Source: Eledone cirrhosa
Taxonomy: Eukaryota
Assembly: GCA_964016885.1 (NCBI GenBank)
Contig: OZ024747.1
Coordinates: 59,396,001-59,460,000, forward strand
Reading direction: 5' to 3'
Length of the DNA: 64,000 nucleotides
This document shows, one piece after another, positions 26,578 through 26,623 of the stretch. Below the pieces are notes generated by a model that did no database searches, had not been told where the DNA came from, and saw only the letters and a list, made by a program, of their open reading frames with translations. Numbering within the stretch: the first letter of the stretch is position 1; every line of letters begins with the position of its first letter. The position numbers and the translations under genes are program-made.

Positions 26578-26623
26578 CTAAAAATAATTAGTGAAGGTGG
26601 TTAATAAAAACCCCAGTCAGTAC

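Follow-up and report, generated by a model that had tools for sequence, protein, structure and literature searches.

The window, a 64,000-nt stretch of the Eledone cirrhosa genome, carries on its minus strand a gene for an ELAV/Hu RNA-binding protein with three RRMs. RRM1 and RRM2 are closest to HuD, HuC and HuR. In a comparison with the PDB, the Octopus bimaculoides RefSeq protein P0005 matches HuD at 3e-73, HuC at 1e-72 and HuR at 6e-66. The window's isoform with exon a (see below) agrees with P0005 at 337 of 338 residues. Coding starts, from the ATG used here, in an exon at 52232–52436, where RRM1 begins. Much further downstream lies a constitutive exon of 104 nt (27151–27254) with a U2-type donor (AAG/GTAGGT), followed after a 373-nt intron by two exons of 154 nt each, exon a (26624–26777) and exon b (26424–26577). 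Only 46 nt separate the two (26578–26623). An intron of 3123 nt leads from exon b to a constitutive exon of 232 nt (23069–23300), and the last coding exon (22221–22542), which encodes RRM3, reaches to the stop codon.

Three in-frame cassette exons of 33, 51 and 66 nt (minus strand 41724–41692, 36894–36844 and 33812–33747) lie in the 25-kb first intron. Their peptides occur in P0004, P0005 and P0038 as inserts inside RRM1. In the cephalopod-type proteins P0004 and P0006 the 51-nt cassette (36894–36844) also has a further paralogue of 17 aa, and both copies are included together; we did not find this second copy in the window. Past the stop codon, the flank at 22220–21621 (minus strand) has a T content of 0.46 and seven runs of at least five T. 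U-rich 3′ flanks are typical of ELAV 3′ UTRs. Elsewhere in the window there are low-complexity blocks (GC below 0.1 at 1–2000, within a block at 1–2500; strong GC/AT skew at 47000–51000) and an AT/GA microsatellite near 51.5–51.9 kb (51500–51950).

Exons a and b are paralogues. They agree at 121 of 154 nucleotides and 44 of 51 amino acids, share length and phase (3n+1), and both have AG and GT at their ends, with non-consensus donors (CAG/GTACTG after a, CAG/GTTAGA after b). The differing codons are synonymous in 20 cases and non-synonymous in 7, both frames are open, and four-fold sites are identical at 6 of 16. Because silent differences outnumber residue-changing ones to this extent, both copies, judged by their codons, are old and constrained. 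A third copy is absent from the 64-kb window.

Each peptide is on record. O. bimaculoides RefSeq isoform X3 contains the exon-a peptide unchanged (51 of 51 residues), and isoform X5 the exon-b peptide (51 of 51). X3 holds a only and X5 holds b only, and these annotation models bear out the proposal of a first-pass annotation that the two are mutually exclusive homologous exons. That annotation called them 3a and 3b, a numbering that overlooks the three cassette exons upstream. Exon a alone or exon b alone gives a protein of 338 aa. Going by equal length and phase, valid splice sites and an annotated isoform for each single inclusion, the two exons are a mutually exclusive tandem pair.

We could still be misled by our source, a single assembly window, if one exon were a dead duplicate or the 46-nt gap an assembly error. 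We give this almost no credence: the 20 to 7 ratio of silent to replacing differences, the divergence of four-fold sites and the open frames all speak against it, both peptides are annotated isoforms, Pomacea isoforms show the same a/b swap, and the window contains no N.

On a single-sequence structure model (mean pLDDT 51, hence of low confidence and used only for a rough placement of elements), the exons would encode the stretch from the last strand of RRM1 through the linker to the middle of RRM2 (RNP2, alpha1 and beta2). Within their first eight codons (26777–26754 and 26577–26554, minus strand) both octopus copies keep an RPSS linker motif, and most bivalve a-type copies have RPSC in its place. 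In mammalian neuronal ELAVL, RPSS has been reported to be the site of CDKL5 (bioRxiv 10.64898/2026.04.07.716766).

The spacer and its motifs

The spacer reads from 26623 to 26578 on the minus strand. It starts with GT, ends with AG and matches the sequence quoted in the first-pass annotation in every letter. The terminal AG is the only one in its 46 nt. A retained spacer would place an in-frame TAA at +21 to +23.

All three branch-like motifs named earlier are present, and each fits YNYTRAY. TACTGAC (26616–26622) overlaps the donor of exon a, has its A at +7 (26617), 40 nt before the acceptor, and is not conserved as a full motif. TATTAAC (26600–26606) has its A at +23 or −24 (26601) and, judged against the range of 19–37 nt quoted in PMC7969005, would be the best-placed candidate branch point for exon b. 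CACTAAT (26587–26593), with its A at +36 or −11 (26588), is probably too near the acceptor. It is true that none of the motifs is more than about 36 nt away from the exon-a donor, but length alone forces this: they are close to the donor because the spacer is only 46 nt long.

How unusual is such a cluster? Of 624 intronic 46-mers of the same gene (a background drawn with cassette-exon boundaries that are approximate to within a few bases), 1 contains three YNYTRAY motifs, as do 0.3% of 20,000 shuffles. This pattern was picked after the motifs had been seen. With plain YTRAY, triples occur in 10 of the 624 46-mers and in 2.0% of shuffles. Many sequences have one or more YTRAY (217 of 624 46-mers, 51% of shuffles). 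The triple is modestly enriched, and one motif alone means little.

The overlap of TACTGAC with the donor could have been purpose-built, so that U2 binds on top of the exon-a donor and the occupancy by U1 or U2 acts as the switch. The motif covers donor positions +2 to +8 and fits CTRAY, the triple exceeds the usual shuffles (P 0.003–0.02), and a YTRA core is possible at that place in 5 of 10 relatives. There is also a precedent, since the exclusion of OGDH exons 4a and 4b is enforced by branch adenines 25–41 nt from the donor (PMC7969005). However, a full YTRAY is impossible there in all 10 mollusc-type a-type relatives, which removes the special weight that had been placed on this motif. A better-placed motif exists at −24, and TACTGAC mostly follows from the conserved GTAC donor. 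We therefore consider a purpose-built overlap quite improbable.

An irregular hairpin is predicted at 26623–26553 (minus strand). It spans the exon-a donor and the exon-b acceptor and is not significant. If it formed, it could hide both sites together and act as a switch: spacer positions +2 to +20 are predicted to pair with nucleotides 8–25 of exon b (top-partner probability about 0.4–0.8), and positions +25 to +29 with the acceptor (about 0.8). Yet 293 of 2000 synonymous recodings fold equally well, and z-scores against shuffles are only −1.6, −1.3 and −0.8. Docking/selector duplexes of the Dscam type did not rise above shuffled targets in any of four comparisons, which also speaks against folding as the switch. 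We regard it as very improbable, more so than the overlap. The inverted repeats, among the 25 longest of 99, are A/T-rich and of low complexity, and Rfam gives 0 matches over 25500–27800.

An incompatibility of U2 and U12 splice sites was also considered and rejected. The donors are GTAGGTGA, GTACTGAC and GTTAGAGT, and none reads RTATCCT, the U12-type donor consensus.

Donor strength, reading frame and intron length

Both donors of the pair are weak. Pairing with U1 yields −7.1 kcal/mol for a as well as for b, compared to −11.0 to −12.1 kcal/mol for three constitutive donors. T content is 0.61 upstream of a and 0.53–0.64 downstream of b, compared to 0.49–0.50 upstream of exons 2 and 4.

If a is joined to b, translation would end early, at nucleotide 23 of b and 363 nt ahead of the last junction. 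With both exons skipped, the stop lies 124 nt upstream of that junction, and with the spacer retained it falls within the spacer, 409 nt upstream of the junction. The NMD junction rule applied here comes from mammals. At the level of the reading frame, the arithmetic behind the suggested frameshift/NMD backup is right (154 nt = 3n+1). Among 352 proteins no a–b joined product was present. This is weak evidence, because the joined product is frameshifted and thus invisible to protein searches. One Mya arenaria gene model (P0003) carries a and b in frame with a 9-aa linker, which goes against exclusion, but this double-copy model is probably a prediction artefact.

Is an intron of 46 nt too short to be spliced? 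The short-intron component of O. bimaculoides has its mode at 105 nt and a weight of 2.3%; the human mode is 89 nt (supplement of PMC6157073). With the parameters given in that supplement, the fitted model puts introns of 46 nt or less at 0.17–0.25% in O. bimaculoides, 16% in C. elegans, 0.12% in Drosophila and 0.04–0.05% in humans. The comparison with the species' intron lengths that had been called for is thus favorable in that the spacer is less than half as long as the 105-nt mode, but the share of about 0.2% (about 386 of 234,484 introns) is the tail of a curve fitted for O. bimaculoides and no direct count. The passages of PMC4040987 and PMC13644364 covered here hold no octopus intron data.

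In human extract, a donor-branch distance of 46 nt abolished splicing, and about 50 nt is quoted as the minimum (PMC6692369). The same threshold of about 50 nt is found in PMC7969005. In the octopus spacer the distance is 7, 23 or 36 nt for the three motifs (23 nt for the best-placed one). All are below 50 nt, as the length dictates. The threshold is a mammalian one, and by the model above Drosophila holds 20% of its introns at 60 nt or less. Because 46 nt is far below the 105-nt mode and the model assigns only about 0.2% of introns to lengths up to 46 nt, we infer that steric exclusion is likely in this octopus.

Alternatively, the 46-nt intron could be spliceable, and exclusivity merely apparent: weak sites would be regulated, and frameshifted a+b products would decay. 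Exons of 3n+1 nt with a premature stop in a+b fit this scenario. So do the longer spacers of relatives (next section) and the full set of splice signals kept in the spacer, from GT and branch motif to a pyrimidine-rich stretch (13 of 17) and AG. In C. elegans, 14 of 19 non-3n clusters are NMD-dependent, and the five clusters with too-short introns are all 3n (PMC4165533). On the other hand, the spacer is less than half the octopus short-intron mode, and single inclusion needs the same splice signals anyway. Hence we think a spliceable intron unlikely, though it is the strongest of the alternatives.

The exon pair in other molluscs

The data on spacers in relatives are back-translated ORFs. The oyster-type ORF P0024 runs from an a exon across the spacer into a b exon, so that the spacer is 236 nt long. 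Its residues force AGs at −190, −112 and −52, and a YTNAC branch motif at −27, 210 nt from the donor. This layout therefore leaves room for neither a short intron nor a tropomyosin-like distant branch point. Nine further a-type read-through ORFs set lower bounds on spacer length of 143, 104, 71, 89, 48, 42, 77, 107 and 245 nt. Seven of these lie between 71 and 245 nt, and the lowest two (42 and 48 nt) are mussel-type and uninformative, so a short spacer may also occur outside cephalopods. With 236 nt in the oyster type and at least 71–245 nt in seven of nine other relatives, the "built-in" exclusion of the first-pass annotation finds no support as a general design.

No spacer of another cephalopod turned up. 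A search for short read-through ORFs of other cephalopods gave 24 matches, none with the octopus exon sequence. A profile search gave no cephalopod spacer among the 150 listed of 4717 cluster representatives and added three gastropod-type ORFs. The idea that oyster-type tails in different frames come from the same DNA found no confirmation: the shared runs are 7 and 6 codons long, and shuffles reach 7 and 6. P0095 alone shares 23 residues in frame with P0024.

The donors behave differently from the spacer. Reading the residue after the exon in read-through ORFs (P0024–P0344; 25 vertebrate-type proteins were left out beforehand), the implied donor is GTAC or GTAT after a-type exons in 10 of 10 ORFs and GTCA after b-type exons in 6 of 7; octopus b has GTTA. 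These type-specific non-consensus starts correspond to 26624–26620 (a) and 26424–26420 (b) on the minus strand. Consensus-type GTAAR or GTGAR is implied by 46 of 64 other ORFs. Read-through ORFs are related to one another, so the counts do not represent independent events. As far as such ORFs can tell, donor weakness is conserved across molluscs, unlike spacer length.

The exon pair itself is widespread. The Mya arenaria model has both copies in the same order as in octopus. Pomacea isoforms X2 and X3 differ by the a/b swap and by an unrelated 11-aa cassette, and match otherwise. We built trees from 51 columns with 44 and 23 hand-picked rows. The AU test rejects a species-specific duplication for octopus (p-AU 0.017), Pomacea (0.0001) and oysters (0.011; two different species), but not for Mya (p 0.19). 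A single a-type clade that includes octopus a receives support of only 65/71, and in the 44-row tree octopus a falls outside the a-type group. Residues at two exon positions largely go together: 19 of 20 rows with Leu at exon position 28 have no basic residue at position 39, and 19 of the 24 other rows have one. By these alignments, the exon pair is no octopus invention and also exists in bivalves and gastropods. These species are not a full list of those that carry both isoforms.

Beyond these groups there are two further observations. In the divergent ELAV-like ORF P0147 the same exon occurs twice in tandem, with 80 nt between the copies and the Cys-type one leading. It could reflect an independent duplication or a deeper origin. 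Annelids and bryozoans each have versions resembling a and b, in different species (P0052, P0056, P0148, P0078, P0168); these may represent either this exon pair or separate paralogues of elav.

Proposed mechanism and known systems

Our preferred explanation is that the spacer, too short for excision in one piece, works as two half-introns, with frameshift decay removing errors. We consider this probable. On this view an old tandem exon duplication, whose intervening intron is the spacer, produced two RRM1–linker–RRM2 variants that differ at 7 of 51 residues. At 46 nt this intron would be too short to excise, so that exon a could not join exon b. The 3′ half of the spacer would supply branch point (most likely the A at −24) and acceptor for b, to be paired with the donor of the upstream exon. 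The 5′ end would supply the donor for a, to be paired with the acceptor of the downstream exon. Errors are expected either as retention of a, spacer and b together or as skipping of both exons, with a premature stop in both cases.

The short length would then be a lineage-specific lock, added to an older arrangement. Given conserved non-consensus donors and 3n+1 exons, the choice between a and b is probably made by regulated recognition of weak sites, and decay of frameshifted products would be the ancestral safeguard. In oysters and snails exclusivity probably comes from these two components, regulated weak sites and decay of the a+b product. Self-regulation by ELAV through U-rich flanks would be a guess. 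That U1 on the exon-a donor competes with U2 on the exon-b branch site, as suggested in the first-pass annotation, would be a hypothesis for how the choice is made.

A broader reading is more tentative, and we hold it to be possible rather than probable. The octopus lineage may have shrunk an intron below spliceable size, while keeping both weak donors, in a hitherto undescribed ELAV exon switch that would date back at least to the split between cephalopods, bivalves and gastropods and might be lophotrochozoan-wide. If this were true, the locus would provide a natural before-and-after case, in which regulated, decay-policed exclusion turned into hard-wired steric exclusion within a master neuronal splicing regulator. 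The RRM2 variants (Leu/non-basic and Gln/basic at exon positions 28 and 39) would then have distinct functions, and ELAV autoregulation might be involved.

The mechanism is textbook. The value of the locus lies in a compact test case for how exclusion is enforced and for the minimum intron length in cephalopods, and an orthologous pair with a spacer of 46 nt in octopus and 236 nt in the oyster-type record allows a direct comparison. We find the old molluscan ELAV exon pair more interesting than the spacer itself. The pair also has practical weight, as elav is a common neuronal marker in molluscs and cell types may differ in their RRM2 variant.

Both exon choices are already present in automated annotation (ELAV-like protein 1 X3/X5 of O. 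bimaculoides RefSeq, X2/X3 of Pomacea). A search of the open literature, at the level of listings and the openings of abstracts, turned up no description of a duplicated molluscan ELAV exon pair or of its mechanism. A human catalogue lists 57 of 629 clusters (9%) with potential steric interference and 377 (60%) with exons not divisible by three (PMC5740500); its main text and that of PMC9741552 do not mention "ELAV". As described for honey-bee elavl2 (PMC8553928, PMC6915785), a single ELAV/Hu gene is diversified by alternative splicing around RRM2, like the mollusc gene. However, the bee exons are cassettes and microexons in loops or the hinge, whereas in molluscs a duplicated exon exchanges a folded part of RRM2.

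In rat Tpm1 exons 2/3 (41 nt) and OGDH 4a/4b (25–41 nt; PMC7969005), a donor-branch distance below about 50 nt blocks exon–exon joining, as it probably does in octopus, and to this extent the likeness to tropomyosin claimed in the first-pass annotation stands. The remainder does not. According to the same source, Tpm1 and OGDH have a distant branch point, a long AG-free pyrimidine tract and a longer intron, and are conserved across vertebrates. In the octopus spacer the best candidate branch point is not distant but lies at −24, where one would ordinarily be placed relative to the acceptor, and it is the intron as a whole that is short. The oyster-type relative lacks this arrangement.

C. elegans offers a closer parallel. 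Five of 29 mutually exclusive clusters reported there have introns that are too short: egl-15 5B/5A (14 nt), let-2 9/10 (30 nt), bet-2, gly-5 and gly-6 (PMC4165533). Like the octopus pair, they consist of tandem alternative exons. Their whole intron is below the working minimum of the species, as is probable for the octopus spacer; the worm cut-off is about 40 nt and the octopus minimum is modelled only. The five worm clusters have 3n exons and lack a frameshift backup, which the 154-nt exons of the octopus supply. The feature probably belongs to the known class of steric exclusion, in which the worm type, rather than Tpm1 or OGDH, is its nearest counterpart.
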